Source: an uncultured Nitrosomonadales bacterium (GTDB lineage: Bacteria; Pseudomonadota; Gammaproteobacteria; Burkholderiales; Gallionellaceae). From it: DNA of 64,000 nucleotides. Both the position numbers and the translations under genes were made by a program. The notes beneath the pieces were generated by a model. It saw only the letters and a program-made list of their open reading frames with translations. It did no database searches and had not been told where the DNA came from. The stretch is from the NCBI GenBank assembly GCA_903892645.1, contig CAITJF010000152.1, forward strand, positions 2,205 to 66,204. Reading direction: 5' to 3'. This document shows positions 22,648 to 49,582 of this stretch, piece after piece (position 1 is the first letter of the stretch; each line of letters opens with the position of its first letter).

Positions 22648-22651
22648 TCTT

Positions 22652-23098: not shown

Positions 23099-23121
23099 CA
23101 CTTTATCCCTGAGCTTATTTA

Positions 23122-23548: not shown

Positions 23549-23799
23549 AAGGAAACGTGATTCTGCCACCAATGATAAGCCTATTCTGCTTGTCAGCGGG
23601 GCGCGGGGCCATGGTATATTGGCAACCATGTTTTGCGATAGCAGGGTTAAGCAAAGGACGCTTCAGCAAGTGGGAGATATTTGCGAGCAGATGTGGGATT
23701 TTTGAAACAGTAATTTTACGAGTAAACCCTTTCCGCTAATGAGCACCTCTAAAAATTTGCCGGAATGACAAGCTCTGCATTTTTAGAGGCACACTAATA

Positions 23800-27502: not shown

Positions 27503-27562
27503 AAAATATCCGCGCCAAAGTCGCGAGAAATTGGTGTTCCTTCGTGGCGAGACTCTTTGTGT

Positions 27563-30449: not shown

Positions 30450-30459
30450 GGTTTCCTCA

Positions 30460-31473: not shown

Positions 31474-32464
31474 AAGGGATTTTCTCTTGTTCAAGCGACA
31501 GCTTGGCAAATTCGCCTTGGCGATGGCCACGGCGTTTCAGTTCAAACTCGATCCCATTCAGGATGTTCCACTTTTGCGAACACCAGGATGGAGCAAGCAG
31601 GATGTCTTTTGAGGCAGTGCCGGTGACGCGGTGGTAGACGATATGGGGCGGGGTGCACTCGATCAGGTCAGCCGCGATGCGGATGTAGTCGGCCACTTCC
31701 AGTGGCTGATATTCGCCGCGCCGCCACTCGGCGGCCAGCACGGTATTTTTGACCACATGCAGCGGATGCAGTTTAAGGCCGTCTGTTCCCAAGGCAAGCA
31801 CGGTATCGAGCGAGGAGTGGTAATGGTGTTCCGTTTCTCCGGGAAGGCCGATGATCAGGTGAGTGCATACCGGGATGCCGCGTTTTCTTGCGGCTATTAC
31901 CGTTTTCTCATATTCCTTAAGTCCATGGCCGCGGTTCACCCGCTTGAGAGTCTCGTCAAAGGCTGATTGCAGGCCGAGTTCCAGCCATACCACCAGCCCG
32001 CGCCGCTGATAATCCACCAGCAAATCCAGCACCGCTTCAGGAACGCAGTCAGGGCGCGTGCCGATGGACAGGCCTGCCATATCCGGCTCGGATAATGCTT
32101 CTTCATAGAGTGCTGCCAGTTCGGCGACATCGGCGTAGGTGTTGGTATAGGCCTGAAAATAGGCAAGGAAGCGACGCGCCCGGGTGCGTTTGCCAATAGC
32201 GTGTTTGCCGCTTCTGATTTGCTCGGAAAGTGAAGGCGGGGTGCGCCCATTGGGGCTGAAAGAGGCATTGTTGCAGAAGGTGCATCCTCCCATCCCCTTG
32301 GCGCCATCGCGGTTGGGGCAGGTAAGGCCTGCATCAAGCGCGATCTTGTGCACCCGCTCGCCATGCTGCTGCAACATGTGTTGCCCGAAGGTAAGGATAT
32401 AGTCAGAAAGTGCCATTGATCCGGCACAGTTCGTGAGTGGTGAGCGGAGTAATGGCACCCGCAA
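31463..32464 (-). CDS. TIGR01212-type radical SAM protein (YhcC-like)
   Basis: LTCPNRDGAKGMGGCTFCNN cluster motif. The start may be the internal Met at 32416. Its stop lies 8 nt after the ubiU ATG, an 11-nt overlap. Confidence 0.75.
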   Translation of the reverse strand: MRVPLLRSPLTNCAGSMALSDYILTFGQHMLQQHGERVHKIALDAGLTCPNRDGAKGMGGCTFCNNASFSPNGRTPPSLSEQIRSGKHAIGKRTRARRFLAYFQAYTNTYADVAELAALYEEALSEPDMAGLSIGTRPDCVPEAVLDLLVDYQRRGLVVWLELGLQSAFDETLKRVNRGHGLKEYEKTVIAARKRGIPVCTHLIIGLPGETEHHYHSSLDTVLALGTDGLKLHPLHVVKNTVLAAEWRRGEYQPLEVADYIRIAADLIECTPPHIVYHRVTGTASKDILLAPSWCSQKWNILNGIEFELKRRGHRQGEFAKLSLEQEKIPYAA

Positions 32465-33120: not shown

Positions 33121-33729
33121 TCAGTTGAGCAATAGCTTAATATCATGCACAAGGGCATCCGCTCCTTGTCCATAAGCCGCGTGCAGGCGCAATCTCCCCG
33201 ACGGGTCGTAAATATAGGTTCCGACCGAGTGATCCAACGTATAGTTGGCGGGGCTCTTACCCGGTTCCTTGCTATAAAACAGGTGGTATTCCTTGGCGGT
33301 CTCGGCAATTTGTGCCGGCGTACCGTAGAGGCCCATGAATTTTGGATTAAACGAGGGAACGAATTGAGCCAGAAGTGCCTGAGTATCGCGCTCGGGGTCC
33401 AGGGTTATGAACAGAACCTGCACCTTGTCCGCGTCGGGACCGAGGCGTTTCATTACGAGAGCAAGCTCCGATAATGTATTCGGGCAGGCTTCAGGGCAAT
33501 GCGTGTACCCGAAAAACAATACAACAACTTTACCCTTAAAGTCAGATAAGGTGCGTGGTTTTCCCTGATGATCGGTCAACCGGAAATCTTTTCCGGAGTC
33601 GATCCCGGTAACATTGGTAGACTTGAACGGTTGTGCCGCTTGCGGCTGATTGCAGCCGCACAGGGATGCTATGGCCAGGCTCACAAGTAAAGATTTCAGG
33701 AACGGTTTAAAAAAAGCTGCTCTTGTCAT
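33121..33729 (-). CDS. SCO1/SenC-family copper chaperone / thiol-disulfide protein
   Basis: 202 aa. Lipoprotein-like signal (LAIASLCGC), the CPEAC (CxxxC) motif and a downstream His (LDHSVGTY). Confidence 0.85.
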   Translation of the reverse strand: MTRAAFFKPFLKSLLVSLAIASLCGCNQPQAAQPFKSTNVTGIDSGKDFRLTDHQGKPRTLSDFKGKVVVLFFGYTHCPEACPNTLSELALVMKRLGPDADKVQVLFITLDPERDTQALLAQFVPSFNPKFMGLYGTPAQIAETAKEYHLFYSKEPGKSPANYTLDHSVGTYIYDPSGRLRLHAAYGQGADALVHDIKLLLN

Positions 33730-35102: not shown

Positions 35103-35116
35103 TTGATATACATCAA
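35103..35116 (+). promoter_or_regulatory. Perfect FNR box TTGAT-ATAC-ATCAA (class II-type position)
   Basis: TTGATATACATCAA. A -10-like GAAAAT sits at 35139-35144, 22 nt after the box. This is the only strong signal upstream of the heme-copper cluster. Confidence 0.7.
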
Positions 35117-35206: not shown

Positions 35207-35347
35207 ATGGAAGCAACAAAGCAAGGCGGGATTGAAACAACCGGTGGGCAAGGAACGCGGATGTCCAGCTGGCGCATGAGTTTCATAGGTGTGATGTGCT
35301 TAGTGGTTTTTTACGTAGTTTGGGGTATCGTCAAAATGATTTTGTAG
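35207..35347 (+). CDS. 46-aa single-TM micro-protein (below ORF-track cutoff)
   Basis: GGAGA lies 7 nt upstream of the ATG. Peptide: MEATKQGGIETTGGQGTRMSSWRMSFIGVMCLVVFYVVWGIVKMIL. Confidence 0.4.
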   Translation: MEATKQGGIETTGGQGTRMSSWRMSFIGVMCLVVFYVVWGIVKMIL

Positions 35348-35407: not shown

Positions 35408-35557
35408 ATGTCAAATGAAGAGAGTTTTAGACCCACCGTCTTGCAACGCATCCTCGACGACATCAATTTTATGATGTGTTTGGGGTTGGTTATACCGACG
35501 GTGTTTTACACATTGTGGGGAGTCATGGAAGTTGCCACCATCCCATTGGGCAAATAA
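35408..35557 (+). CDS. 49-aa single-TM micro-protein (possible small oxidase subunit)
   Basis: GGGAGG lies 6 nt upstream of ATG 35408. Peptide: MSNEESFRPTVLQRILDDINFMMCLGLVIPTVFYTLWGVMEVATIPLGK. The track lists a TTG-extended form from 35369. Confidence 0.45.
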   Translation: MSNEESFRPTVLQRILDDINFMMCLGLVIPTVFYTLWGVMEVATIPLGK

Positions 35558-35609: not shown

Positions 35610-36155
35610 ATGGGTTATTCATTCACAGCACCAGCAAAGAATTGGGCGACCGAACCGATCGAGCGTACCGAAATCTTATGGATCGTTATCGCAGGTTCGT
35701 GGTGTCTTTTCATGTTTTGCTGGATGATTGCCTGGCACTGGATTGGCAATCAAAACATGGCCAACGAAGCGTATAAAACTACGCCGGAAGCTTACGCTAA
35801 AAAAGTCGAGGAATTCACCGCGAAATATACCGTGCGCCAAGACAAGAGCGATCCCAGTTTGCCGGTGGTGGCTCCGCCTCCCGGCAGTGACGTTTATCTG
35901 GCGGCAAGCCGTTGGCAATGGCGTCCGATAGTGGAGTTCCAGAAGGGTAAATCCTACCGTGTGCATATTTCGTCACTGGATTGGGATCATGGCTTTTCCC
36001 TGCAGCCGGAGAATATCAATTTCACGGCTTATCCCGGATACGATGCAGTTGTGACCATGACACCCAACAAGACTGGCACATTTGGCATTGTGTGTAATGA
36101 ATATTGCGGCATCGGTCACCACACCATGCTCGGCAGAATTTACGTAAAGGAGTAG
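35610..36155 (+). CDS. Heme-copper oxidoreductase subunit II, ba3-like, CuA centre intact
   Basis: 181 aa, one N-terminal TM helix and a cupredoxin domain. CuA ligands: H127 (DHGF) and C162-x3-C166-x3-H170-x2-M173 in CNEYCGIGHHTMLGRIYVKE. Confidence 0.85.
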   Translation: MGYSFTAPAKNWATEPIERTEILWIVIAGSWCLFMFCWMIAWHWIGNQNMANEAYKTTPEAYAKKVEEFTAKYTVRQDKSDPSLPVVAPPPGSDVYLAASRWQWRPIVEFQKGKSYRVHISSLDWDHGFSLQPENINFTAYPGYDAVVTMTPNKTGTFGIVCNEYCGIGHHTMLGRIYVKE

Positions 36156-36158
36156 GAA

Positions 36159-37856
36159 ATGGCTATAACTACCGCACAATCACCCTTTCGCACGGACCCG
36201 CTGACCGGTCTGCGCATTGACCTGACCGCCCAAGCACTGGTGAAGGTCAATGCAGTACTCGCCGTCGTGTTCCTGCTGGTCGGCGGAACTGCCGGCTTGC
36301 TGGTCGCCTTGACGCGCTGGCCGGCGGTGCACTTGCTGCCCGCTGACCTGTTCTATATGGCGCTCACCGCACACGGCATTGTAGCGCTCATGGTGTGGAT
36401 CATCTTTTTCGAAATAGCGGTGCTGTATTTCGTAGCCTCGACCTTGCTTAGCTGCCGGTTGGCGGCGCCAAAACTGGCTTGGACGCAGGTTGTGCTGATG
36501 GTTGTTGGCGCAGCCATGACTTTTGTCGCAATCCTGCAAGGCGATTCCAGCGTCATGATGACGTCTTATGTGCCGATGAATGCCGCCCCGCATTTCTACC
36601 TGGGCTTGATCCTGTTTGCGGTGGGTGCGCTAATTGGTTGCGGCGTATTCTGGGGTACATTAGTGATCGCTGCGGAAGAAAAGACCTACGAAGGCACGTT
36701 GCCGCTGACGGTGTATGGTTGCGTAATCGCCACGATTATCGCGGTTTTCACCATCGCTTCTGGTGCCATCATCCTGATCCCGACGTTCCTGTGGTCGCTG
36801 GGCCTGATCAAGAGCATAGACCCGATGATGTATCGCGTAATCTGGTGGGCGTTCGGCCACTCGTCGCAGCAAATCAACGTGACCGCCCATATTACGATTT
36901 GGTACACGGTTGCCGGTCTGGCGTTCGGCGCCAAGCCGATGTCGGAAAAAGTGAGCCGTACCGCTTTCCTGTTGTATATCTGCTTCCTGCAATTTGGTTC
37001 GGTGCACCACTTGTTGTCCGATCCGGGATTGAGCTCGGCGTGGAAAATCTTCAACACCAGCTACATGATGTATCTGGCGGTGTTGGCCAGCTTGATTCAC
37101 GGTCTGACCGTGCCTGGTTCGATCGAAGTGGCGCAGCGCAGGAGCGGGTTGAACAATGGCCTGTTCGAGTGGCTGCGTAAATGTCCCTGGGGCAATCCGG
37201 TATTCTCCTCCACGATCCTGTCGATCATCATTTTCGGCTTTATCGGCGGCGTTACCGGGGTGGTGATGAGTGTGGAGCAAGTTAATATGATCATCCACAA
37301 CACCATCTATGTGCCGGGGCATTTCCACGGTACGGTGGCGGGCGGTACTACGCTGGCTTTCATGGGACTGACCTACTATCTGATCCCGGTGCTGTTTCAG
37401 CGCCAAGTCATCATGAAGCCGTTGGCAGCCTTGCAGCCTTGGTTGTTTGGCATCGGGACATCGATATTCGCGATTGCCATAATGGGTGCGGGAACCTTGG
37501 GTGTGCCACGCCGTCATTGGGATGTCACTTTTGCTGGGCAGGCGCTGGGTTTTGAATGGCCCGGTATGGCGCAAATGATGTTAGCCATCGGCGAAATAGG
37601 CGGTGTCATAGCGGTGTTGGGTGGCGCATTGTTCTGCGTGATCGTGGTGGGTTCCATCCTGATCGGCGAGCCGGTTCCAGCAAATGCCAAGAATATCGTG
37701 GCGCCTCCCGCCGATGCGGGCGGTCACAAGGAAATCGGTATGGGTGGCTTCGAAGCCCCAGGTACCTTTATCTTGGCCATGGTGCTGTTTGTAACCCTCG
37801 TGCTCTACTACTTCGTCAACTTCAAGTATCTGGCCACTCTGTGGACATTGACCTGA
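36159..37856 (+). CDS. Heme-copper oxidoreductase subunit I, B-family-like but lacking the cross-link tyrosine (candidate NO reductase)
   Basis: 565 aa. Ligand set H72, H234, H283/H284 and H388/H390. The residue four positions after the first CuB His is Gln (GHSSQQ, codon 36870-36872) rather than the Tyr of GHPxVY. Confidence 0.85.
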   Translation: MAITTAQSPFRTDPLTGLRIDLTAQALVKVNAVLAVVFLLVGGTAGLLVALTRWPAVHLLPADLFYMALTAHGIVALMVWIIFFEIAVLYFVASTLLSCRLAAPKLAWTQVVLMVVGAAMTFVAILQGDSSVMMTSYVPMNAAPHFYLGLILFAVGALIGCGVFWGTLVIAAEEKTYEGTLPLTVYGCVIATIIAVFTIASGAIILIPTFLWSLGLIKSIDPMMYRVIWWAFGHSSQQINVTAHITIWYTVAGLAFGAKPMSEKVSRTAFLLYICFLQFGSVHHLLSDPGLSSAWKIFNTSYMMYLAVLASLIHGLTVPGSIEVAQRRSGLNNGLFEWLRKCPWGNPVFSSTILSIIIFGFIGGVTGVVMSVEQVNMIIHNTIYVPGHFHGTVAGGTTLAFMGLTYYLIPVLFQRQVIMKPLAALQPWLFGIGTSIFAIAIMGAGTLGVPRRHWDVTFAGQALGFEWPGMAQMMLAIGEIGGVIAVLGGALFCVIVVGSILIGEPVPANAKNIVAPPADAGGHKEIGMGGFEAPGTFILAMVLFVTLVLYYFVNFKYLATLWTLT

Positions 37857-37881
37857 TGGGCGCAAGTTGACCTAAGGCGTG

Positions 37882-37918
37882 CCAAAACGGTGGGAGGTTT
37901 TTTCTCCTGCCGTTTTGG
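37882..37918 (+). other. Stem-loop between subunit I and the heme O synthase gene
   Basis: Perfect 9-bp stem CCAAAACGG (37882-37890) / CCGTTTTGG (37910-37918), extended by a partial inner GGGAG/CTCC pairing. No trailing U-run follows. Confidence 0.4.
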
Positions 37919-37971
37919 AGTTAAAGGCACAAGGTGTGGATATTTCACGCCCAACCACTTGGGGTTTGTAT

Positions 37972-38829
37972 ATGGGAACAGCTATTAAACAAGTTACCGA
38001 TTTGTTCAAGTTAAGGATCGGTATCGTCATCAGCTTCACTGCATTGGCTGGTGTGGCGGTAACGCCGGGTTCGCTGGCTGGCTGGAAAATTGTATTGTTG
38101 GGGCTTGCGGTGTTGATTTCTTCAGCCAGCGCGGGTGCATTCAATCAATACGTTGAGCGGGATATTGACGTGCGCATGGCGCGCACCTGTAAGCGTCCCT
38201 TTGTCACCGGCACGCTTCAGCATGGCCCGTTCTGGCTGTGCGTGATTCTTGTCATGCTGGCAGGTTCGGTGTCGGCGGCAGTAGTGGCGCTCAATTCCGT
38301 CTCGGCCCTGTTTGTATTTTTGGGGGCGTTTTTCTATGCTGTGGTTTACACAGTTTGGTTGAAACGTCGTACCTGGATGAACATCGTGATCGGCGGATTG
38401 GCCGGTAGTTTCGCGGTGCTGGCAGGAGCCGCTGCGGTAAACCCGCAGCTAAGCTCGCAAGCGTTGATTCTGGCAGGAATATTGTTTTTGTGGACACCAC
38501 CGCATTTCTGGAGCTTGGCAATCGCCTATCACAAGGATTACGATGCCGCAAAAGTCCCCATGTTGCCGGTGGTGGTGGGTGACGAACGCGCTGCACGCAT
38601 TATTTTTGGCAGCACTGTGCTGCTGGTGGCGACTTCGTTGATGCCGGTTTTCTACGGCATGGGCTGGATTTATTTCATTGGTGCGGCGAGCGGCGGTGCG
38701 TATTTTCTGCTGAAAAGCGTGCAGTTGATGCGTATGCCAAATCGTGCAACAGCGATGTCATGCTTCCATGCTTCACTCATGCAATTGAGTCTATTGCTGA
38801 CCGCAGCGATGATAGACGCGTCTTTGTAG
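37972..38829 (+). CDS. ctaB: Protoheme IX farnesyltransferase (heme O synthase)
   Basis: The likely start is MGTAIKQVTDLFKLRIGIVISFTALAG at 37972 (track ORF from 37879). UbiA-family motif NQYVERDIDVRMARTCKRPFVTG. Confidence 0.88.
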   Translation: MGTAIKQVTDLFKLRIGIVISFTALAGVAVTPGSLAGWKIVLLGLAVLISSASAGAFNQYVERDIDVRMARTCKRPFVTGTLQHGPFWLCVILVMLAGSVSAAVVALNSVSALFVFLGAFFYAVVYTVWLKRRTWMNIVIGGLAGSFAVLAGAAAVNPQLSSQALILAGILFLWTPPHFWSLAIAYHKDYDAAKVPMLPVVVGDERAARIIFGSTVLLVATSLMPVFYGMGWIYFIGAASGGAYFLLKSVQLMRMPNRATAMSCFHASLMQLSLLLTAAMIDASL

Positions 38830-38837
38830 TTTTGCCG

Positions 38838-39686
38838 ATGCGTCTATGGCTGTTGCTGGGCCTGTTGGGGATGGCGGGAGCGGCGTTTGCCTCAGGGGGA
38901 AACGTTCAACCCGCAGCACCCGTTAAATTCGATCAAAAATCTGCATTGCAATTCAGTCAAAGTGTAGTCGGCCAGCAGATGGCCGACTATGCCTTGCTTG
39001 ACCGCAACGGTCAGGCAGTCAGGCTTTCCAGTTATCGCGGCAAGCCGGTGCTGGTGAGCTTTATTTATACCGGTTGTTCGGTAACCTGCCCCGCCACCAC
39101 ACAATATCTTGCCAAAGCGGTCAAATACATGCAGAACGCTCTTGGTGCTGACAGCTTCCAGGTGTTGACTGTCGGCTTCAATGCCCCTTGGGATTCGCCA
39201 CAGGCGATGCGCGATTTTGCTTCACGGCAAAATATCAAGTTGCCACACTGGGAGTTTCTGAGTGCAGATGCGGCAACCATGCAGAATTTCACGCGAGACC
39301 TCGGATTCAGCTACGCCTATTCGGTCACTGGTTTCGATCATATTTCCCAGCTCACCTTGCTTGACCAGGAAGGCAAGGTTTATCGCCAAATATACGGTGA
39401 TAATTTCGAGTTGCCTCAGATGGGTGAGCCGTTAAAAAAACTGGTGGGCAATGTGCAAACCCAGTATCCCGGTTGGGAGGGTTTGAGCAACCGCATTCGC
39501 TTGTTCTGTACCGTTTATGATCCCAGCACGGGATCCTATACCACCGATTATTCGTTTTTCTTCGGCATATTTATCAGCTTGGTGATGACTTATTACTTCG
39601 TCAAATGGATTGTCCGTGAATGGCGCCGCGCCCCACGCCGCAACCCTCCCAAAGCCAATGAGGCAGTTGAAATAAAACCATCCTAG
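38838..39686 (+). CDS. SCO1/SenC-family protein with C-terminal membrane helix
   Basis: The likely start is MRLWLLLGLLGMAGAAFA at 38838. It has the thioredoxin-like CSVTC (CxxxC) motif, a conserved His (FDHISQ) and the C-terminal TM FFFGIFISLVMTYYFV. Confidence 0.8.
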   Translation: MRLWLLLGLLGMAGAAFASGGNVQPAAPVKFDQKSALQFSQSVVGQQMADYALLDRNGQAVRLSSYRGKPVLVSFIYTGCSVTCPATTQYLAKAVKYMQNALGADSFQVLTVGFNAPWDSPQAMRDFASRQNIKLPHWEFLSADAATMQNFTRDLGFSYAYSVTGFDHISQLTLLDQEGKVYRQIYGDNFELPQMGEPLKKLVGNVQTQYPGWEGLSNRIRLFCTVYDPSTGSYTTDYSFFFGIFISLVMTYYFVKWIVREWRRAPRRNPPKANEAVEIKPS

Positions 39687-39863: not shown

Positions 39864-41795
39864 GTGGTCATGATCAAGTTGATACAGCGTATTGGGCAGG
39901 GTCTGTTGCTGCGTGTGGAAAAAGGATTCAATGCCATTTTCGGCGCGGAGCTGAATCCGTTGTACCAGCTTGGCGCCATTTTGTTTTTCCTGTTCTGGGT
40001 GGTATTGGGGAGCGGGTTTTATCTTTACGCGTTTTATCGCACCGGAGTAAGCGAGGCGTATTCTTCGGTCGATAAAATCACCCACGAACAATGGTATCTG
40101 GGCGGTATCATGCGCAGCCTGCACCGCTATGCCTCGGATGGCATGGTGGTCTTGGTGCTGGTGCACATGGCGCGCAATTTTGTGATGAACCGCTTGAGCG
40201 GCTTCCGTGCTTTTTCCTGGCTTACCGGTATCGTGCTCCTGCTACTGTTAATTATTTCCGGCATCAATGGCTACTGGCTGGTGTGGGATCAGCTTGCGCA
40301 ATTCGTTGCCGTGGCCAGCACGGAATTCCTGGACTGGCTGCCGGTTTTCGTCTCCCCATTGGTGCGCAATTTCCTGACCCCGGACAGCATCAATGACCGT
40401 TTCTTCTCGTTGCTGTCTTTCATGCATTTGGGCATTCCGCTTGGGATGCTGATTTTCATCATGGTTCACACCCAACGGGTGAGCGGAGCCAAGACCCAGC
40501 CTTCGAGGCCACTTGCGATTGGACTAGGCCTTACGCTGCTGGTGCTGGCTCTGGTTAAGCCAGCTTTGAGCCAGGGCGGCCAGGCTGACCTGAGCACGAT
40601 TGCCGCGCAAATCAAGCTGGACTGGTTTTTCATGGCGGTTTACCCACTGATTTATATGTGGTCGCCGAACCAGTTGTGGGCGCTGGTTGGTGGCTTCCTG
40701 GCTTTTCTCCTGCTGTTGCCATTGCTGGCGCGCACCAAACGCATGAGCGAAGGTTTCCAGATCACCACTGCGCCGAGCATGCGCACCTTTACGGCCAAGC
40801 CGGGTGAAACTGTATTGGAAGCAGCGTTGCGTCAGGATATTCGGCTGCCTTACACATGTCGCGATGGAGCCTGCGGAAATTGCAAGGGCACCATTCTGCA
40901 TGGGGCGGTTGATTATGGCGTGCATCAGGAAGATGCCTTGAGCGAGCAGGACAAGCAGGCAGGCAAGGCGTTGTTCTGCTGCGCCACGCCGTTGTCCGAT
41001 ATGGAAATTGAATATTACGAAAATGAAACACTGAAACAAGTCCCAGTGAAGCTCATGCAGTGCCGTGTACATAAGATGGTGCGCGCCACGCCGGATGTGA
41101 TGGTGCTGTATTTGAAAATGCCGCAGGGCAGTAAACTGCAATTTTTTGCCGGCCAATATCTCGACATTCTGCTGGAGGATGGTGCACGCAGAAGCTTCTC
41201 GTTCGCCAATGCCCCGCACGATGACGGATTTATCCAATTGCACATCCGTCTAATTCCAGGCGGCAAGTTCACCAATCATGTGTTCACGCAAATGAAGGAA
41301 GGCGACGAGCTGAGCTTTGAAGGCCCGCTTGGTACTTTCTTCCTGAACGAGAAAAGTGATATGCCGATAATTTTTGTGGCCGGCGCTACTGGCTTCGCAC
41401 CAGTGAAAAGTATGTTGGATCACGCTTTTTACACTGGCTCCAAGCGCCGTATGCTGTTGTACTGGGGGGTGAAAATGCGCAAAGATTTATACATGGCCGA
41501 TTTGCCGGAGCTCTGGCAACGGGAGCACGACAATTTTACTTTTATACCGGTGCTGTCCGAGCCGGGGCCGGATGATAACTGGCAGGGGCGTACCGGCTTG
41601 GTGCATGAGGCCATTTTGCAGGATCACCCTGACCTGAGTGGCTTCCAGGTTTATGCTTGCGGCTCGATGCTAATGGTACAGGCAGCGCGTCCGGCTTTTC
41701 TCGCGCAGGGGTTGCCGGAAAATGCATGTTTTTCGGATGCCTTCCTGTTGCCTACACATAAGGTAGCGCAACCTGCCGTGGAGGTGCAACCATGA
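39864..41795 (+). CDS. Fusion protein: cytochrome b-type membrane domain + plant-type 2Fe-2S ferredoxin + FNR-like FAD/NAD(P)H reductase
   Basis: Start at GTG 39864 or ATG 39870. Four heme-ligand His sit in cytochrome b context (SLHRYASD, LVHMARNF, FMHLGIP, MVHTQR). Also present: CRDGACGNC...CC, then RSFSF, GPLG and GATGFAP motifs. Confidence 0.8.
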   Translation: MVMIKLIQRIGQGLLLRVEKGFNAIFGAELNPLYQLGAILFFLFWVVLGSGFYLYAFYRTGVSEAYSSVDKITHEQWYLGGIMRSLHRYASDGMVVLVLVHMARNFVMNRLSGFRAFSWLTGIVLLLLLIISGINGYWLVWDQLAQFVAVASTEFLDWLPVFVSPLVRNFLTPDSINDRFFSLLSFMHLGIPLGMLIFIMVHTQRVSGAKTQPSRPLAIGLGLTLLVLALVKPALSQGGQADLSTIAAQIKLDWFFMAVYPLIYMWSPNQLWALVGGFLAFLLLLPLLARTKRMSEGFQITTAPSMRTFTAKPGETVLEAALRQDIRLPYTCRDGACGNCKGTILHGAVDYGVHQEDALSEQDKQAGKALFCCATPLSDMEIEYYENETLKQVPVKLMQCRVHKMVRATPDVMVLYLKMPQGSKLQFFAGQYLDILLEDGARRSFSFANAPHDDGFIQLHIRLIPGGKFTNHVFTQMKEGDELSFEGPLGTFFLNEKSDMPIIFVAGATGFAPVKSMLDHAFYTGSKRRMLLYWGVKMRKDLYMADLPELWQREHDNFTFIPVLSEPGPDDNWQGRTGLVHEAILQDHPDLSGFQVYACGSMLMVQAARPAFLAQGLPENACFSDAFLLPTHKVAQPAVEVQP

Positions 41796-42304
41796 GCCAG
41801 CCGCTGAAATACTTGGGGCAAGGGCTAGCCTACGCGCTGTTCGCCGTGGTGCTTGGTTATTTCTCCACTTCACCGGAGTACGCGCACTTGCCGGCGGATT
41901 CCGCGCTGCTTAAGCTGAGTTTCAACCACGCGGCCCAGCGAAAGAAACCGTGCCACGAGCGCACCGACGAGGAAATGGCCAAGCTGGCAAAAAATATGCG
42001 GATACGCAAGGATTGTCCGCGCGAACGCTCCGACGTGGTGGTGGAGTTGGAGATGGACGGCAAGCAGTTGTACCATGTCGTGCTGCACCCGCCCGGCCTG
42101 TCGCATGACGGTGCCGCTTCAATATATCGCCGCCTGCCGGTGCCGGCAGGCCCCCATCGTTTCGTGGCGCGCCTGAAGGATATGGAGGGGGGCGATTTCA
42201 GCTTTGTGCACGAGGAAAACATTACTCTTGGCGCCGGCAAGGTAATGGTGATTGATTTCAAGGCCGACGTTCCCGGCGCCCCCGGCTTTATGTTTAAGAG
42301 TTAG
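41792..42304 (+). CDS. Membrane-anchored hypothetical protein, translationally coupled to the preceding gene
   Basis: Its ATG overlaps the upstream TGA (ATGA at 41792-41795). It has an N-terminal TM (LAYALFAVVLGYF) and a ~130-aa soluble domain with two Cys. No family recognised. Confidence 0.6.
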   Translation: MSQPLKYLGQGLAYALFAVVLGYFSTSPEYAHLPADSALLKLSFNHAAQRKKPCHERTDEEMAKLAKNMRIRKDCPRERSDVVVELEMDGKQLYHVVLHPPGLSHDGAASIYRRLPVPAGPHRFVARLKDMEGGDFSFVHEENITLGAGKVMVIDFKADVPGAPGFMFKS

Positions 42305-42310: not shown

Positions 42311-43717
42311 ATGACTATTCCCGTGGAAGCGAACTCTCCTTATGATGCGCCGCCGGATGTTGGCGGTGTGTATGCGTTGCCCACGCCGCATCAAGCCAGC
42401 CAGCGCTTGGCTGCCGGCTGGCTGTGGCTGAGTTTTGCCGCACTGGTGGGGGCAGGTTTTTTTGCTCTGCTGGTAGTGATGGCGCGTACACCTTATGTGT
42501 CCGATATTTTTCCCACGGTAGATTTTTTCCGTAGCGCCCTGGTGGTGCATGTGGATTTGTCGGTGCTATTGTGGTTCTTTGCTTTCGCCGGTGTGCTGTG
42601 GGGTGCAGCCTCCCCTCCAAAGTGGATGCCCCTCGGTTGGGTAGCGCTGTTGCTGGCGGTGGTAGGCGTGATAGTGGTTGTGGTTTCGCCGTTTGTCAGC
42701 ACCGGCGGGCCGCTCATGAATAACTATATTCCGGTGCTGGAAAACAGGGTGTTCCTTACCGGTTTGTTCCTGTTTGGTTGCGGTATCGGGTTGCTTGCCT
42801 TGCGTGGCCTGCTGACGATTCCCCTCACCGGGTTTGGTGCAAATAGAGATGGCGGCATACTTTGTTTCGGCCTTTATACTGCCGCAGTGGCGACGACGAT
42901 GGCGCTCATCGCATTTTCCTGGGCATTCGCAACCATTCCGTTTTTTGTGCGCGGTCTTCCTTATTACGAGGCGCTGTTTTGGGGTGGTGGGCATGTGATG
43001 CAATTCGCCTATACCCTGCTGATGTTGGTTGGCTGGTTGTGGCTGTCCTCTGAATGCGGTGCCCAGGTGCCATTAACTCCGCGCATATCACTGTTCCTGT
43101 TCGCCTTGGGGGTTGCACCGGTGCTGTTTACACCGCTGATCTACGCCCTTTATGAGACCAATACCGGCGATAACATGGGAATGTTCATCTGGATGATGAA
43201 AATCGGTGGCAGCCTGGCGGCTGTGCCGATTGGGCTGGCGGTAGCGTATGCAATGGGGAACCGTGGCTATCCTGACCCTTCGAAGCGTCCGCTGTTTGCT
43301 GCCTTGCTGTGTTCGATGGTTTTGTTTGCGGTGGGCGGTGGCATTAGCCTCATGATCAAGGATAGCAACACCATCATCACCGCGCATTATCATGGTACCG
43401 GGGGCGCTGTGAGCCTGGCTTTCATGGGGCTGGCTTTTGTGCTGCTGCCCAAGCTGGGGTTTCGTGCGCCTGATTTGAAGCTTGCCAGCTGGCAGCCTTA
43501 TGTGTACGGTATCGGGCAGTTGCTGCACATCATCGGGCTGCTGTGGTCGGGTGGGTACGGCGTGCAACGCAAGGTCGCTGGAGCAGCCCAGGAATTGCAC
43601 AGTTTCGGGCAGGTCGCCGGAATGGGATTGATGGGAATAGGCGGGTTAATCGCCGTGATCGGCGGCCTGATGTTTCTGGTGGTGGTGTTTCGTGCAATGA
43701 GGGGGCGAACACGTTAG
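42311..43717 (+). CDS. Heme-copper subunit-I-like 12-TM protein lacking two CuB histidines
   Basis: 468 aa. It retains H80 (VVHVDLSVLLWFF), H228 (WGGGHVMQF) and H359/H361 (AHYHGT). The HH position, 49/50 residues after H228, is I277-Y278 (codons 43139-43144). Confidence 0.75.
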   Translation: MTIPVEANSPYDAPPDVGGVYALPTPHQASQRLAAGWLWLSFAALVGAGFFALLVVMARTPYVSDIFPTVDFFRSALVVHVDLSVLLWFFAFAGVLWGAASPPKWMPLGWVALLLAVVGVIVVVVSPFVSTGGPLMNNYIPVLENRVFLTGLFLFGCGIGLLALRGLLTIPLTGFGANRDGGILCFGLYTAAVATTMALIAFSWAFATIPFFVRGLPYYEALFWGGGHVMQFAYTLLMLVGWLWLSSECGAQVPLTPRISLFLFALGVAPVLFTPLIYALYETNTGDNMGMFIWMMKIGGSLAAVPIGLAVAYAMGNRGYPDPSKRPLFAALLCSMVLFAVGGGISLMIKDSNTIITAHYHGTGGAVSLAFMGLAFVLLPKLGFRAPDLKLASWQPYVYGIGQLLHIIGLLWSGGYGVQRKVAGAAQELHSFGQVAGMGLMGIGGLIAVIGGLMFLVVVFRAMRGRTR

Positions 43718-43804
43718 CGCCGCAGGCGGCCATTACGCCACGCTTTTCGGCTTTGTAGCTCGTTACGACTTCTCTTATTTTGACAGCAACGTAGTTTGCA
43801 TAGA

Positions 43805-45382
43805 ATGCGCAAATATCTACAAAACTTGTTGCTGCGTCTGGAAAACGCATTCAATGCGCCGTTCGGTCAGGCATTGAATCCTTGGTACCACCTCGGCGCG
43901 ATCACCTTTTATCTGTTCTGGATCGTGGTGGTAAGCGGCGTTTATCTCTATATCTTTTACCGAACCGGGGTGGATGAAGCCTACCAGTCGGTCGAACGCC
44001 TTACCCATGATCAATGGTATGCCGGCGGCGTGATGCGCAGCCTGCACCGCTATGCTTCTGACGGCATCGTGGTGACGATGCTGCTGCATATGCTGCGCAA
44101 TTTTATTACCGGACGTTTCCACAGCTTCCGCTGGTTTTCCTGGGTGAGCGGGGTTTTTCTGATCTGGCTGGTTTACACTTGCGGCATCAACGGCTACTGG
44201 ATGGTGTGGGACAGGCTGGCGCAATTCATTGCCGTGGGCACTGCGGAATGGTTCGATTGGATGCCGCTGTTCAGCCAGCCGCTGGCGCGCAACTTTCTCG
44301 TGCAAGGCGATGTCAATGATCGCTTCTTTGCACTGCTGTCGTTTGCCCACATCACCATTCCGCTGGTATTGCTGCTGTTCATGTGGATACATACCAAGCG
44401 CATGAACCACGCCGAAACCAACCCTCCCCTGCGCCTTGCGGTCGGCACGCTGCTTATGCTGCTGGCGCTGTCGCTGGTCAAGCCGGCGCTAAGCCACGCA
44501 CATGCCGATCTGGCGCTGTTGCCTGATGTGATCCGACTTGACTGGTTTTATCTGGCGCCGTATCCGCTGCTTTATATCTGGTCGCCTGGCGCGGTGTGGG
44601 TGTTGGTTGGCGGGATTACCGCGCTGCTCCTATTGGTGCCGTGGTTATTCAGGCCGCGCACGCGCCCTGCGGTGGCGGAGGTGCATCTGGACAATTGCAA
44701 CGGTTGTGCACGTTGCGCTGCCGACTGTCCTTATTCGGCCATTGTGATGCATCCGCGCCAGGACGGCAGGCCGCACCAATTACAGCCAGTGGTAGATCCG
44801 GACTTGTGCGCAAGTTGCGGCATTTGCGTCGGTGCCTGTCCATCTTCCATGCCGTTCCGCAGTAACGAACTGGTGAGCGGTATCGAGTTGCCGGATCAGG
44901 AGTTGGCGACGCTACGTGCAGGTATTGATCGTACACTGGCGGTGTTGCACGGCGATGCGCGCGTTATGGTGTTTGGCTGCGATTGTGCCTACGATGTGCA
45001 TGCATTGCAGTCGGAGGGAGTGGCGGCGCTTTCGCTCCCCTGCATCGGCATGCTGCCACCAGCGTTTATTGACTACGTGCTGCGCGACGCACGTGTTGAT
45101 GGGGTGATGGTTGCCGGTTGCCGTGAAGGGGATTGCCAATACCGTCTTGGCATCCGCTGGACGGAGTTGCGCCTGGCACGCCAGCGAGTACCGCATTTGC
45201 GCCAGCGAGTGCCACTTCAGCGTATCGAGTTTTGTTGGGCCGGCATACAGGATGATGAGCGGGCACGCGCGGAACTCGGCACTCTGCGTGCGCGGGTGGC
45301 GCAACTGCCGCGAGAAATAATCATGGAAGAGGATTCGCGAGAGCATGAACGCCAGTCCGGTGACAAAAACCAACCTGATTAA
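43805..45382 (+). CDS. Fusion protein: cytochrome b-type membrane domain + 2x[4Fe-4S] ferredoxin + MvhD/FlpD-like domain
   Basis: The likely start is ATG 43805 (MRKYLQNLLLRLENAF, parallel to its paralogue); the track ORF starts at 43796. The N-terminal half is a paralogue of 39864..41795 with the same four His. Then come CNGCARCAADCP and CASCGICVGACP, then FGCDC...LPCIGML...VAGCREGDCQYRLG. Confidence 0.8.
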   Translation: MRKYLQNLLLRLENAFNAPFGQALNPWYHLGAITFYLFWIVVVSGVYLYIFYRTGVDEAYQSVERLTHDQWYAGGVMRSLHRYASDGIVVTMLLHMLRNFITGRFHSFRWFSWVSGVFLIWLVYTCGINGYWMVWDRLAQFIAVGTAEWFDWMPLFSQPLARNFLVQGDVNDRFFALLSFAHITIPLVLLLFMWIHTKRMNHAETNPPLRLAVGTLLMLLALSLVKPALSHAHADLALLPDVIRLDWFYLAPYPLLYIWSPGAVWVLVGGITALLLLVPWLFRPRTRPAVAEVHLDNCNGCARCAADCPYSAIVMHPRQDGRPHQLQPVVDPDLCASCGICVGACPSSMPFRSNELVSGIELPDQELATLRAGIDRTLAVLHGDARVMVFGCDCAYDVHALQSEGVAALSLPCIGMLPPAFIDYVLRDARVDGVMVAGCREGDCQYRLGIRWTELRLARQRVPHLRQRVPLQRIEFCWAGIQDDERARAELGTLRARVAQLPREIIMEEDSREHERQSGDKNQPD

Positions 45383-46299
45383 CGCCTGCGCAGCCGGTAG
45401 TTAAGTGACACCAGAATGAGCAGCAGGAATGCCGCTGTGGCGTTATGAAGCAGCACCAGAAAAAGCGGCAGGCTGTATGCCACGGCGCTGATTCCCAGAG
45501 CGACTTGCAGCGTGAGCGCGGCGATCAGCAGCATGCCGCTGCGCCGCAAATTTTCCCGGATCAGGCAGGCTCCTAACCAGGCAAGATAACAAAACACCAG
45601 CAGCGCGGAGAAACGGTGCGCCATGTGCAAAGTCTGCTGCGCAGCACCCGGAATGAAGTTGCCGCCCTGTGGCACTTTCAACACCTGAAAAGGATTGAAG
45701 TCCGCCAGTGATGCGTGCTGTAGCCATCCATCGCAGCCGGATGGACCGGTGCAGCTTAAGGCAGCGAAACTCGCACTGACCATGCCCCCCAGCGTTATTT
45801 GTACCACGAGCAGCCCCAACCCCAGTGATACCCACCTGCGCAAACGTGAAGAGGCAGCGTATCGAGGCACGTATCCGAGATGTAATCGCCACAGCAGCGC
45901 CAGCATTCCCAGGCCGCCGAGCAGGTTGCCGAGCGCAACCGCTGGCAGGTGTGCGTTGTGCGTCCATTTGCCGAGCACTGCAAGGAAAGCCGTTAGCCCC
46001 AATAATGCCAGCGCAGGCGGAAAATCACCGGGTGCCACGCGGCGGCGGCGCCAGGCGAGTGAGGTAATGGCAAGGGCGGTAAAACCCATGGTGCTCGCCG
46101 CAATGCGGTGAGTGGTATTTATCCAGTTCGGATGGGGAGGGGCAAGGCCAGCCAGATTGTGTCCATAACATGCAGGCCGGTCGGGGCAGCCCAACCCGGC
46201 GCCAGTCAGGCGCATGTGGGCACTTAGCAAGATGATTATCGCCATTAGTGCGAAGGTGAACAGCACCAAGCCGTGGAATACGCGATTACCGTCAGCCAT
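45379..46299 (-). CDS. ctaA: Heme A synthase (COX15/CtaA family)
   Basis: 306-aa polytopic protein with N-terminal LLSAHMRLTGAGLGCPDRPACYG and paired His-containing helices. Its stop overlaps the convergent gene's stop (TTAA at 45379-45382). Confidence 0.8.
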   Translation of the reverse strand: MADGNRVFHGLVLFTFALMAIIILLSAHMRLTGAGLGCPDRPACYGHNLAGLAPPHPNWINTTHRIAASTMGFTALAITSLAWRRRRVAPGDFPPALALLGLTAFLAVLGKWTHNAHLPAVALGNLLGGLGMLALLWRLHLGYVPRYAASSRLRRWVSLGLGLLVVQITLGGMVSASFAALSCTGPSGCDGWLQHASLADFNPFQVLKVPQGGNFIPGAAQQTLHMAHRFSALLVFCYLAWLGACLIRENLRRSGMLLIAALTLQVALGISAVAYSLPLFLVLLHNATAAFLLLILVSLNYRLRRR

Positions 46300-47144: not shown

Positions 47145-47158
47145 TTGATGTAAATCAA
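47145..47158 (-). promoter_or_regulatory. Perfect FNR box TTGAT-GTAA-ATCAA upstream of the cytochrome c gene
   Basis: TTGATGTAAATCAA. On the gene strand a -10-like CAAAAT (47122-47117) lies 22 nt downstream of the box. Confidence 0.65.
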
Positions 47159-47318: not shown

Positions 47319-48053
47319 CTAGAGGAATTGCGGCGGCGGGCCGACGTAGGCTTGTAACCCAGGCAGATTATGAAGCTCCACCGATTTGTTGCGTATGTTA
47401 ATCAACCCGATCCCCTGGAAGTGTGACAGTGTGCGGCTGACCGTTTCCAGCTTCATCCCGAGATAGCTGCCGATTTCCTGGCGCGTCATGCGCAAATGGA
47501 ATGATGTGGGCGAGTAACCGCGTGTGGCAAAGCGCTGCGACAGGTTAAGCAGGAAGGCAGCCAAACGCTCTTCTGCGCGCATCGAGCCGAGCAGCAGCAT
47601 GATGCCTTGGTCACGCACGATCTCGCGGCTCAGGATGCGGTGCAGGTGGCGTTGCAGAGAGGGTAATTTGCGGCTGAGTTCCTCCAGTTGGCTAAAAGGG
47701 ATCTCGCATACCTCGCTGTCTTCCAAGGCGATCGCATCGCAGGTATGTGCATCGCTGCTGATGGCATCCAACCCGATGATTTCCCCTGCCATTTGGAAGC
47801 CGGTGACCTGTTCGCGGCCATCTTCGTGCAGCACTTGGGTCTTGAAAAAACCGGTACGGATGGCATATAGAGACTGGAATTTTGCGCCACTGCGGTATAA
47901 GTAATCGCCGCGCTGGTATGCGTGCTTCAGGCTGATTAAGTCATCCAGCTGCTCCAAGTCAGCCTCAGTGAGTTTCCTGGGCAGGCACAGCTCACGCAAG
48001 TTACAGCCGGAACAGGCGACTCTTAGCGGGGTTAGAGAGACGGATTTTTGCAC
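47319..48053 (-). CDS. fnr: FNR-type O2-sensing Crp/Fnr family regulator
   Basis: 244 aa. N-terminal Cys cluster ACSGCNLRELCLP plus an internal Cys. cNMP-like domain and the HTH recognition motif ETVSRTL (E--SR). Confidence 0.88.
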   Translation of the reverse strand: MQKSVSLTPLRVACSGCNLRELCLPRKLTEADLEQLDDLISLKHAYQRGDYLYRSGAKFQSLYAIRTGFFKTQVLHEDGREQVTGFQMAGEIIGLDAISSDAHTCDAIALEDSEVCEIPFSQLEELSRKLPSLQRHLHRILSREIVRDQGIMLLLGSMRAEERLAAFLLNLSQRFATRGYSPTSFHLRMTRQEIGSYLGMKLETVSRTLSHFQGIGLINIRNKSVELHNLPGLQAYVGPPPQFL

Positions 48054-48107: not shown

Positions 48108-48121
48108 TTGACCTATATCAA
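48108..48121 (+). promoter_or_regulatory. FNR box TTGAC-CTAT-ATCAA in the fnr-hemN divergent spacer
   Basis: 9 of 10 consensus half-site positions match. CATAAT sits at 48143-48148, 21 nt after the box and about 30 nt before the hemN ATG. Confidence 0.65.
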
Positions 48122-48178: not shown

Positions 48179-49582
48179 ATGTCCTCAAATATAAAAGCAT
48201 CATCCGAATTAGAAGTTGATCTGGAGTTAATCCGCAGGCTGGACAAGAACGGCCCGCGTTACACCTCCTATCCTACCGCCGACCGTTTTGTCGAGGCGTT
48301 CAATGCCGAAAGCTACCGCAATTGGGTGGCCAAGCGCGAGATTGGCGGTATCAACCGTCCGCTGTCGTTGTATGTGCACATTCCATTCTGCAATACACTG
48401 TGCTTTTACTGCGCCTGCAACAAGGTGATCACCAAAGATCGCAGCAGGGCGGAAGATTATGTCCGCTACCTGATCAAGGAGCTGGCCATGCAGGCTGCCT
48501 TGCTGGGCGATGGGCAGCGCGTTGAACAGTTGCATTGGGGTGGCGGCACCCCAACCTTTCTGAGCGACGACCTGATGCGCGAATTAATGGGTGCTACCCG
48601 AAAGCATTTCAAGCTGGTGGAAAATGGTGAGTATTCCATTGAAATAGACCCGCGCAAAGTCAGCGACCAGACCATCATCCTGCTTGGCGAATTGGGCTTC
48701 AATCGTATCAGCATCGGTGTGCAGGACTTTGATCCGTTGGTGCAGCGCGCGGTAAATCGTATCCAAAGTGAGGCAGAAACGCTGCAGGTGATCCGCGCGG
48801 CGCGTGCCAACGGCTTCAAGTCGGTTAGTCTCGATCTCATTTATGGGTTGCCCAAGCAGACCCTGACGGGCTTTAAAGCCACTCTGGAGAAGGTGATTGC
48901 CGCCAATCCGGATCGCCTGTCCATCTACAACTATGCGCACATGCCCACCATTTTCAAGCCGCAGCGCCGTATCCACGAGGAAGACTTGCCCTCGCCGCAG
49001 GTCAAGCTGGATATTCTCAGCCTCGCGGTCAAGACGCTGACTGATGCCGGTTATGTGTATATCGGCATGGATCACTTTGCCAAGCCAGATGATGAGTTGG
49101 CGATAGCGCAGCGCCAAGGCAGGCTGCACCGCAATTTCCAGGGCTATTCCACGCATTCCGACTGTGACCTGGTGGCGATAGGGGTGAGTTCCATCGGCAA
49201 GATCGGCCCTACCTACAGCCAGAATTTCCGTGAGCTGGAAGATTACTACGACGCGCTTGACCGTGACGAATTGCCCATCATGCGCGGCATGGAACTGAAT
49301 TCAGACGACCTGGTGCGTCGCGCCATCATCCAGGCCCTGATGTGCCATTTCGAGCTTTCCAAGGAATCTTTCAACATCGCCTACCTCATCGACTTTGATC
49401 GCTACTTCGCCACCGAACTCGGTGAGCTGAAGGAATACGAGCGCGAAGGGCTGCTCAAGCTCACGCCGGAGTGGATCAGCGTCACGCCAAAGGGGCGCAT
49501 GCTAATCCGCAATATCTGCATGGTGTTCGACAAATATCTGCGCACGAGACAGGAACATGCACGCTATTCCAAGGTCATATAG
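48179..49582 (+). CDS. hemN: Oxygen-independent coproporphyrinogen III oxidase (radical SAM)
   Basis: 467 aa. HIPFCNTLCFYCAC (CxxxCxxC) and GGGTPTFL motifs. Confidence 0.93.
   Translation: MSSNIKASSELEVDLELIRRLDKNGPRYTSYPTADRFVEAFNAESYRNWVAKREIGGINRPLSLYVHIPFCNTLCFYCACNKVITKDRSRAEDYVRYLIKELAMQAALLGDGQRVEQLHWGGGTPTFLSDDLMRELMGATRKHFKLVENGEYSIEIDPRKVSDQTIILLGELGFNRISIGVQDFDPLVQRAVNRIQSEAETLQVIRAARANGFKSVSLDLIYGLPKQTLTGFKATLEKVIAANPDRLSIYNYAHMPTIFKPQRRIHEEDLPSPQVKLDILSLAVKTLTDAGYVYIGMDHFAKPDDELAIAQRQGRLHRNFQGYSTHSDCDLVAIGVSSIGKIGPTYSQNFRELEDYYDALDRDELPIMRGMELNSDDLVRRAIIQALMCHFELSKESFNIAYLIDFDRYFATELGELKEYEREGLLKLTPEWISVTPKGRMLIRNICMVFDKYLRTRQEHARYSKVI

Follow-up and report, generated by a model that had tools for sequence, protein, structure and literature searches.

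A Rieske-less cytochrome b fused to a ferredoxin-reductase module in a predicted eNOR-type nitric oxide reductase operon, and a proposed direction for its electrons

In which direction do electrons run through a membrane cytochrome b that carries its own NAD(P)H-reactive reductase, and what do they serve? The question is raised by a 64,000-nucleotide stretch of contig CAITJF010000152.1 from an uncultured Nitrosomonadales bacterium of the family Gallionellaceae, referred to here as the window, in which one gene (39864-41795, + strand) encodes a cytochrome b module, a 2Fe-2S ferredoxin and a ferredoxin-NADP reductase (FNR)-type flavin module. An initial annotation had placed this gene in a heme-copper cluster and proposed either a dedicated electron-input route or a reverse, NAD(P)+-reducing one. 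Sequence cannot decide between the two, and the evidence assembled below favours input. We read the protein as a bc-type cytochrome b that has no Rieske partner and in which a covalently attached NAD(P)H dehydrogenase takes the place of the Qi side. It would work in the forward direction, oxidising NAD(P)H, as part of an eNOR-type nitric oxide reductase system. We give this reading about an even chance of being right.

Architecture and distribution of the fusion protein

The open reading frame (ORF) starts with GTG and encodes 643 amino acids. The true start is probably the ATG at 39870, which gives 641 residues, because homologs are two residues shorter and a Shine-Dalgarno-like GGGGTGG precedes this ATG. 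Four Pfam domains scored above their cut-offs, namely Cytochrome_B (residues 29-203; 85.5 bits, cut-off 27.2), Fer2 (303-376; 55.1 vs 21), FAD_binding_6 (400-492; 59.6 vs 21.1) and NAD_binding_1 (504-609; 76.8 vs 22). The protein divides into a cytochrome b module (residues 1-293, 39864-40742), with helices A-D bearing four His followed by helix E, an ef loop with the motif xDWF and helix F; a plant-type 2Fe-2S ferredoxin domain (residues 303-376, 40770-40991); and an FNR module predicted to bind FAD and NAD(P)H (residues 400-609, 41061-41690). In an alignment of 54 homologs, 57-92% identical, the four haem ligands (H87, H101, H188 and H202), D253-W254-F255 of the ef loop, the cluster ligands C332, C337, C340 and C372, R443 and S446 of the flavin motif, and G487-P488-x-G490, G510 and C599-G600 were all invariant. 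C373, the second Cys of a 'CC' quoted in the initial annotation, was not conserved. The His pairs sit on helices B and D, 14 positions apart (13 residues between), and the best PDB matches of the module were to cytochrome b6 (E 6e-22); by analogy with b6 we assign H87 and H188 to haem bL and H101 and H202 to haem bH. Every motif quoted in the initial annotation occurs in the translation, and its four-His cytochrome b module, ferredoxin and FNR-type reductase were all borne out by the domain scan and the invariant residues. The single path that it drew from NAD(P)H through FAD and 2Fe-2S to two b haems is implied by the same invariant ligands.

The fusion is widespread and its family compact. 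A word-indexed search returned the full four-domain architecture in more than 120 sequence clusters at 90% identity, from metagenome-assembled genomes (MAGs) of Gallionellaceae, Nitrosomonadales and Burkholderiaceae and from Ca. Ferrigenium straubiae. A scan of species-level genomes gave 73 full-length loci, in hosts that include Gallionella, Sideroxydans, Polaromonas, Rhodoferax, Rubrivivax, Caldimonas and Castellaniella as well as Rhodocyclaceae, Steroidobacteraceae and Nevskiaceae. In an exhaustive search of 1.84 billion representatives, the full-length architecture formed one 50%-identity cluster, plus fragments. The chance that an assembly error or frameshift joined two genes artificially is in our judgement negligible. 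The gene is a full-length single ORF in all those clusters and in loci from independent assemblies, it is present in an isolate-derived genome, the length of its linker is kept among homologs, and the orthologs in F. straubiae were found in the proteome under denitrifying Fe(II)-oxidising growth (10.64898/2026.01.22.701106). Four MAG loci (L073, L080, L066 and L017) show the reverse of such an artefact: the fusion gene or its paralog is split into ORFs that overlap out of frame while the query coordinates remain contiguous. These breaks are probably sequencing frameshifts, which could be mis-annotated as separate cytochrome b and reductase genes, and we discarded them as 'Rosetta-stone' support for the fusion.

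Hydropathy and the secondary structure of an AlphaFold2 (AF2) model gave six transmembrane (TM) helices (A 32-56, B 79-107, C 114-141, D 176-204, E 215-231 and F 268-288), with a cd helix (143-158) and short ef helices (247-265) together on one side. The n-side loops carry 10 Lys and Arg in 62 residues and the p-side loops 5 in 92, in the sense of the positive-inside rule. Because the helix count is even and the loop charges fall this way, the N-terminus and the Fer2-FNR module are both predicted to be cytoplasmic, as the initial annotation had supposed for the C-terminus; the Fer2 domain begins about 10 residues past helix F. The same topology puts bL (H87/H188) near the periplasm and bH (H101/H202) near the cytoplasm.

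HMMER matches to mitochondrial cytochrome b reach residue 298, so the module is larger than the four-helix 'cytochrome b N-terminal' domain. The initial annotation was right about the four-His core and missed helix E, the Qo-type loop and helix F. The E-F loop holds IKLDWFFMAVYPLIY, and xDWF, mostly as LDWF, was present in 119 of 120 homologs. Relative to the Qo motif P[E/D/V]W[Y/F], Leu takes the place of Pro; PDWF has been described as the Qo motif of this clade (Kao & Hunte 2014, PMC4122944). The opposite side of the membrane is changed. The motif for haem ci of b6, CxGG, is absent, with YQLGA in place of YCLGG, and compared to bc1 there is a four-residue insertion ahead of the first helix-D His and a four-residue deletion directly past the bH ligand (IMVH-TQRVSG). 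From a bovine comparison we take the deleted positions to be those that bear the Qi residues in bc1. The target thus has neither the His, Ser and Asp that follow the bH ligand in bc1 nor the CxGG of b6, either of which would mark a functional Qi site. Our reading is that a Qo-side pocket has probably been kept and the Qi side remodelled, which would fit a protein-borne redox centre docking at the usual quinone site. The AF2 model had a pTM of 0.52, with pLDDT below 50 in the cd and ef loops.

The best solved-structure matches of the soluble half by sequence were GcoB (E 4e-50), BenC, NqrF, Fre, CarAd and T4moF, and a Foldseek comparison of its model gave TM scores of 0.81 for GcoB, 0.75 for BenC, 0.74 for CarAd and ~0.6 for NqrF. 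It has the Cys4 motif, the RxYS flavin motif, the GxxG nucleotide motif, the domain order and the fold of the three-domain FNR superfamily. As all NCBIfam equivalog cut-offs were missed (BenC 201.7 vs 430, MmoC 196.9 vs 500, AntC 189.3 vs 402, NqrF 135.1 vs 295), we classify it by sequence as a member of the Fer2-FAD-NAD reductase class and not as BenC, MmoC or NqrF themselves. Its nearest solved relatives presumably all oxidise NADH and pass single electrons to haem or iron enzymes; by analogy the substrate is probably NAD(P)H, with NADH the likelier form. A standalone Fer2-FAD-NAD reductase of ammonia oxidisers is 60% identical to the soluble half (L079:9992-11032, Nitrosospira sp. Nsp1; similar genes at L072, L074 and L075). 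At L079 it adjoins hemC-hemD-hemX-hemY and dsbD, with no NOR genes near.

The operon and its conserved companions

A perfect FNR/Dnr/NnrR-type box, TTGATATACATCAA (35103-35116), lies upstream of the operon, about 90 bp before a small ORF read from the sequence as its first gene (35207-35347, +; 46 residues). A second small ORF follows (35408-35557, +; 49 residues), and each has one hydrophobic helix. F. straubiae has a 47-residue gene at the place of the first, with no significant sequence match, and a 38-residue gene at the position of the second (40% identity, E 3e-8). Lying between the box and eNOR subunit II, the two may encode small eNOR subunits. Subunit II (35610-36155, +; Pfam COX2, 68% identical to its F. 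straubiae ortholog) is a cupredoxin with a complete CuA site (H127...C162-N-E-Y-C166-G-I-G-H170-H-T-M173). Subunit I (36159-37856, +; Pfam COX1, 3e-66) belongs to the haem-copper superfamily, and its helix VI reads FGHSSQQ, with Gln for Tyr at H+4, so that the active-site Tyr is absent. Because subunit I lacks the cross-linked Tyr, subunit II has CuA and subunit I is 66% identical to F. straubiae eNOR I, sequence identifies this as an eNOR-type nitric oxide reductase operon. The heme-copper cluster of the initial annotation can thus be kept and made more specific.

The F. straubiae oxidase was classed as eNOR in a preprint with a haem-copper oxidase (HCO) specialist among its authors (10.64898/2026.01.22.701106). 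Its operon has the same gene order, with genes 48-68% identical to those described here and 59-60% identity for the fusion protein. Biochemically, NO reductase activity and haem As, which occupies both sites, have been demonstrated only for the eNOR of Rhodothermus marinus. We also considered the sNOR cluster norSY-senC-orf1 of ammonia-oxidising bacteria as the identity of the operon. It was rejected, as the Nitrosospira and Nitrosovibrio matches were to the soluble reductase only, beside hemCDXY and not NOR, and the oxidase in the target operon is of the eNOR type.

The operon continues with the haem o synthase CtaB (37879-38829, +; NCBIfam TIGR01473, 271.8 bits vs 210.3) and a SCO1/SenC-like thiol-disulfide/copper chaperone (38760-39686, +; Pfam SCO1-SenC, 4e-13) ahead of the fusion gene. 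The first 70 nt of the SCO1-like ORF as listed (38760-38829) coincide with the end of ctaB, and its real start is probably downstream of 38760; its C-terminal TM helix past the thioredoxin fold is unusual. The stop of the fusion gene overlaps (ATGA) the start of a single-pass membrane protein with a beta-sandwich domain, p170 (41792-42304, +). A COX1-like paralog of eNOR subunit I (42311-43717, +) and a second cytochrome b fusion (43796-45382, +) come next, and the haem a synthase CtaA (45379-46299, -; Pfam COX15-CtaA, 8e-40) is convergent with the operon.

We counted these companions in 45 loci that extend 6 kb or more to either side of the fusion gene. eNOR subunits I and II were present in 43, p170 with the COX1-like gene likewise in 43, the SCO1-like gene in 44 and the second cytochrome b fusion in 36; CtaA was within reach in 23, and the fusion gene abutted the p170/COX1-like pair in 35. 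The association with eNOR was kept across at least four gene orders, which indicates a functional link rather than inherited synteny. FNR-type boxes with at most one mismatch occurred eight times in the window against 2.07 expected, two of them being perfect TTGAT-N4-ATCAA. Both perfect boxes are among the three at 35103-35116, 47145-47158 and 48108-48121, the third having one mismatch. The latter two positions flank a gene for a Crp/Fnr-family regulator (47319-48053, -), with hemN at 48179-49582. The placement of these predicted boxes points to low-O2 or NO control.

Two features of the operon were missed by the initial annotation: a Rieske protein is absent, and a paralogous cytochrome b fusion lies 2 kb downstream. 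The Rieske motif CxHxG...CxCH was found in no frame of the window or of 80 related loci, no operon protein had a Rieske Pfam match, and none contained the c-type haem motif CxxCH. Among the operon partners we found no Rieske substitute either. The protein p170 is annotated 'hypothetical' everywhere. It has invariant H46, C54, C75-P-R, H122, D130 and D155, its AF2 model (pLDDT 90) is a TM helix plus a beta-sandwich, and it had no Pfam family and no PDB fold match at E <1e-3 in Foldseek. Its two invariant His and two Cys led us to consider it as a Rieske or cupredoxin substitute, which was not supported, since the sandwich is generic and neither fold was among the 50 Foldseek matches listed. The COX1-like protein is 27-31% identical to eNOR subunit I. 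It keeps the His ligands of the low- and high-spin haems and one FeB/CuB His, while the other two of the three are missing; Ile-Tyr stands for the HH pair, with the Tyr invariant in 63 homologs. One possibility is that it binds haem and has another kind of active site. The F. straubiae preprint terms it 'eNOR scaffold protein' and finds the gene common in eNOR operons (10.64898/2026.01.22.701106). The 'N2O red' HCO family was rejected as its identity, that family being related to cNOR and the COX1-like protein being a paralog of eNOR subunit I.

The second fusion carries a cytochrome b 51% identical to that of the target across all six helices, LDWF included, followed by two 4Fe-4S motifs and a FlpD/MvhD-like domain. 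The same six-helix module is most often fused to 2x[4Fe-4S]+FlpD (527-701 residues), a type more diverse than the FNR fusion. One metagenomic homolog (P0158, L083:10001-12484) joins it instead to flavodoxin, FAD_binding_1 and NAD_binding_1 domains, by sequence a diflavin reductase of the CPR/SiR type; we know of no earlier description of a cytochrome b-diflavin architecture. The operon at L083 reads COX2, COX1, UbiA, cytochrome b-Fer4-FlpD, p167, COX1-like, copper chaperones (LpqE-like and CtaG), SCO1, cytochrome b-diflavin and NnrS, with a Crp/Fnr regulator and hemerythrin genes in the vicinity. In a rough neighbour-joining tree without support values, the FNR-fused modules formed one clade within the Fer4-FlpD-fused ones and the diflavin fusion fell elsewhere. 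On this placement the cytochrome b seems to have acquired an NAD(P)H-type module on at least two occasions. The family shows that the complete cytochrome b unit, with its Qo-type loop, has been put to repeated use as a general-purpose transmembrane wire.

Two paralogous cytochrome b modules in one operon, found together in 36 of the 45 loci, could form a heterodimeric 'H-shaped' conduit in which electrons from NAD(P)H cross between the two bL haems to a second cytoplasmic acceptor by way of the 4Fe-4S/FlpD fusion. The bc-type cytochrome b is an obligate dimer with bL-bL transfer between monomers. A hemerythrin-like NO-stress protein is one conceivable acceptor, and the quinone pocket might act as a buffer; distant cytochrome b-4Fe-4S(-FlpD) fusions of ~700 residues directly precede hemerythrin-domain genes (L086:3643-4038 and L087:11225-11620) that we take to belong to the family of NO-stress proteins such as YtfE/NorA, which hints that these distant fusions may deliver electrons to cytoplasmic di-iron proteins. 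Eight of the 45 loci, however, have the FNR fusion without the second one, which is therefore not required, and a membrane detour between two cytoplasmic modules brings no obvious advantage. We consider such a conduit very unlikely.

The abundance of assembly genes in the operon (CtaB, the SCO1-like gene and the convergent CtaA, with LpqE-like and CtaG genes at L083) raises another explanation, in which the fusion would feed electrons into the assembly of eNOR cofactors and not into catalysis. It might be the donor to the O2-dependent haem a synthase CtaA, much as yeast ferredoxin Yah1 and its reductase Arh1 serve Cox15, or it might reduce periplasmic Cu(II), Fe(III) or SCO1 thiols for CuA/FeB insertion in the style of NOX/FRE. 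CtaA directly follows the fusion gene in the gene order of Burkholderiales (L045, L047 and L067) and the Fer4-FlpD fusion at L084, where that distant fusion also adjoins nirS and an eNOR-like cluster. The eNOR requirement for haem As in both sites, the hemCDXY genes beside the closest standalone relative of the soluble half and the term 'scaffold' for the COX1-like paralog fit the same explanation. Yet a strictly conserved two-haem transmembrane wire with a Qo-type loop exceeds what a membrane anchor needs, the F. straubiae operon has the fusion without CtaA, which was within reach in only 23 of the 45 loci, and direct evidence of a metal- or thiol-reducing site is lacking. We believe a role in maturation is unlikely.

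Direction of electron flow

In the forward reading, cytoplasmic NAD(P)H, probably NADH, would reduce FAD, and electrons would leave one by one through 2Fe-2S to haem bH. From there they would cross the membrane to haem bL, downhill and aided by the membrane potential, and reach either a quinone in the periplasm-side Qo-like pocket or a partner in the eNOR/COX1-like assembly. The protein would probably work as a dimer like the cytochrome b of bc1/b6f, either with itself or with its cytochrome b-4Fe-4S-FlpD paralog. The NO-reducing system would thus gain a source of reductant independent of the cytochrome c chain.

Several observations argue for this direction. A diflavin, NAD(P)H-oxidising module has been fused separately to the same cytochrome b in the same type of operon, next to nnrS, and the closest relatives of the soluble half (GcoB, BenC, CarAd, T4moF and NqrF) are all NADH-oxidising donors. 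Movement of electrons from cytoplasm to periplasm is favoured by the membrane potential, and from NADH to ubiquinone, the quinone of Betaproteobacteria, there is a drop of 0.41 V. The window contains UbiU/V-like genes. Many of the host lineages, in addition, have no need for reverse electron flow.

Other points weigh on the opposite side. We found no experimental work on any family member in the literature. With its full CuA site, eNOR subunit II can already accept electrons from periplasmic carriers. NAD(P)H is costly in Fe(II) oxidisers, where a route that burns it and dissipates the proton motive force looks wasteful. The equivalence of LDWF to the bc1 motif also falls short of statistical significance by itself. 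BLASTP against a bovine segment set LDWF in register with IKPEWYF, at E = 29, and phmmer with a short segment returned no matches that would support the LDWF/PEWY equivalence. In the AF2 model the position of the ferredoxin domain with respect to haem bH has low confidence, and forward flow does not account for the roles of the second fusion, p170 and the COX1-like protein.

The reverse route would make the protein a bifurcating quinol:NAD(P)+ oxidoreductase, supplying NAD(P)H to lithotrophs without reverse complex I. Quinol would be oxidised in the Qo-like pocket, with one electron passing to a high-potential acceptor tied to NO reduction in an eNOR supercomplex and the other through bL, bH, 2Fe-2S and FAD to NAD(P)+. 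A quinol:NAD+ activity was put forward for the orthologous gene in the F. straubiae preprint (10.64898/2026.01.22.701106), and an analogous proposal exists for anammox Rieske/cytochrome b complexes with an n-side NAD(P) oxidoreductase, where Rieske potentials above +300 mV support it (PMC12954380). Further points for this route are the conserved Qo-type loop, the many hosts among Fe(II)-oxidising Gallionellaceae, which need reverse electron flow, and the very strong oxidising power of NO/N2O. Bifurcation nevertheless calls for a high-potential one-electron acceptor, and neither the window nor any of the 80 loci encodes a Rieske protein or another identifiable one; p170, without a significant PDB fold match and with no Rieske or cupredoxin entry among its 50 listed Foldseek matches, does not fill the place. 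The electrons would have to move against the membrane potential and a further 0.41 V from ubiquinol, whereas the anammox case involves menaquinone. With a CuA-type acceptor at ~+0.25 V, a symmetric low-potential branch would lie at ~-0.1 V, a long way short of NAD+. The fusion is no less at home in heterotroph-type lineages, where reverse electron flow is not needed (Castellaniella, Rhodoferax, Polaromonas, Rubrivivax, Steroidobacteraceae and Nevskiaceae), and the class of the diflavin variant is known only as NADPH-oxidising donors. We regard the reverse route, in its general form and in the eNOR-coupled form described, as improbable. A fuller version, in which the fusion, its Fer4-FlpD paralog, p170, the COX1-like protein and eNOR make up a Rieske-less supercomplex whose Qo-type pocket bifurcates ubiquinol electrons between NO and NAD(P)+ reduction, we would call quite improbable.

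If forward flow is correct, NAD(P)H would directly drive NO reduction by way of a bc-type cytochrome b that is without a Rieske partner or Qi site, and the fusion would be an unrecognised input module for respiration or detoxification. Were the reverse to hold, denitrifiers, iron-oxidising ones among them, would have a new bifurcating route to NAD(P)H, and quinone-based electron bifurcation would gain a new class. NO reductases of the eNOR type, which make N2O, are common in the environment; in many Beta- and Gammaproteobacteria, among them nitrate-reducing iron oxidisers, the FNR fusion and its paralog accompany eNOR in near-obligate fashion. The family is tractable, since its hosts include several named genera or strains in culture, such as Castellaniella and Alicycliphilus.

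The rest of the window and known systems

Upstream of the operon, two Peptidase_U32 genes and a radical-SAM gene with a Radical_SAM_C domain occupy 29538-32464 (-). We take the U32 pair to resemble UbiU/UbiV of O2-independent ubiquinone synthesis; the same combination occurs near the eNOR-type operon at L083. An RND efflux pump (ACR_tran, 1043 residues) and a CusB/HlyD-type adaptor with a heavy-metal-binding domain (24371-28978, -) are probably a Cus-like copper/silver efflux system, close to the copper-dependent operon, and a second SCO1 gene lies at 33121-33729 (-). The cumulative GC skew has its minimum at ~22000-24000, where GC content dips to 0.51. Most of the longer ORFs are on the - strand up to ~34 kb and on the + strand from ~35 to 53 kb, a switch that could be replication-related or simply an operon boundary.

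The initial annotation called the fusion unusual, which it is, but it is not new. The architecture was catalogued as the 'PDWF-FeS' clade (Kao & Hunte 2014, PMC4122944), of which two architectures match the two fusions of this operon, with an xDWF Qo motif, no Rieske gene in the cluster and function unknown. Its named members include proteins of Alicycliphilus, Magnetospirillum and Turneriella. The target motif is LDWF where the clade has PDWF, and the 2014 paper makes no mention of an eNOR context. By architecture and motif, and not by a tree, we would place the target in this clade, as it combines a cytochrome b bearing the xDWF motif with a non-Rieske Fe-S/ferredoxin-flavin fusion and no Rieske gene. 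Subfamily H of Dibrova et al. (2017), large cytochrome b-containing proteins of unknown function, may be the same family. The closest described gene is the F. straubiae ortholog, 2878407319, in an identical gene order; the preprint considers the genes somewhat unusual and takes them to mark communities dominated by Ferrigenium (10.64898/2026.01.22.701106). Our survey, in contrast, spans Gallionellaceae, Burkholderiales, Rhodocyclaceae, Steroidobacteraceae and Nevskiaceae, and where the preprint favours a quinol:NAD+ activity we favour the opposite direction. The fusion is accordingly a further member of a catalogued, functionally uncharacterised family and should not surprise specialists in bc complexes or HCOs. 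The present analysis adds that the eNOR linkage is near-obligate over ~70 genomes and holds in several gene orders, that the family reaches beyond Ferrigenium, and that the two cytochrome b modules are paralogs. It also contributes the diflavin variant, the remodelled Qi side, the absence of a Rieske substitute and the thermodynamic argument on direction.

The anammox complexes (Kuste4569-4574 and Kustd1480-1485; PMC12954380) resemble the target in having a bc-type cytochrome b whose cytoplasmic side connects through Fe-S and FAD to NAD(P) and whose Qi function is doubtful. They also use menaquinone and contain a Rieske protein, subunit IV, multihaem cytochromes c and, as a subunit of its own, a reductase with a 4Fe-4S chain. 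The target lacks them all; its reductase is instead the fused 2Fe-2S/FNR module. BenC, GcoB, CarAd, T4moF, MmoC and NqrF share the domain order, ligands and fold of the soluble half (TM 0.74-0.81), and NqrF is also membrane-anchored. NqrF donates to other Nqr subunits and the remainder to soluble oxygenases, and none is fused to cytochrome b.

In NOX/FRE flavocytochromes and dihaem succinate:quinone oxidoreductases, a cytoplasmic flavin dehydrogenase likewise feeds two stacked b haems and then an outer acceptor or quinone. Their membrane folds are unrelated to that of the target, which had no Pfam match to Ferric_reduct and only an E 0.24 match to NAD_binding_6, and they are functional analogues only. 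Flavohaemoglobin Hmp and NorVW likewise draw on NAD(P)H, through FNR-type electron transfer, to feed a haem or iron enzyme that consumes NO, but are soluble, with no membrane haems or quinone-type site. Compared with the canonical bc1 and b6f complexes, the target has no Rieske gene, no c1/f or other c-type haem subunit and, as far as its sequence indicates, no functional Qi site.

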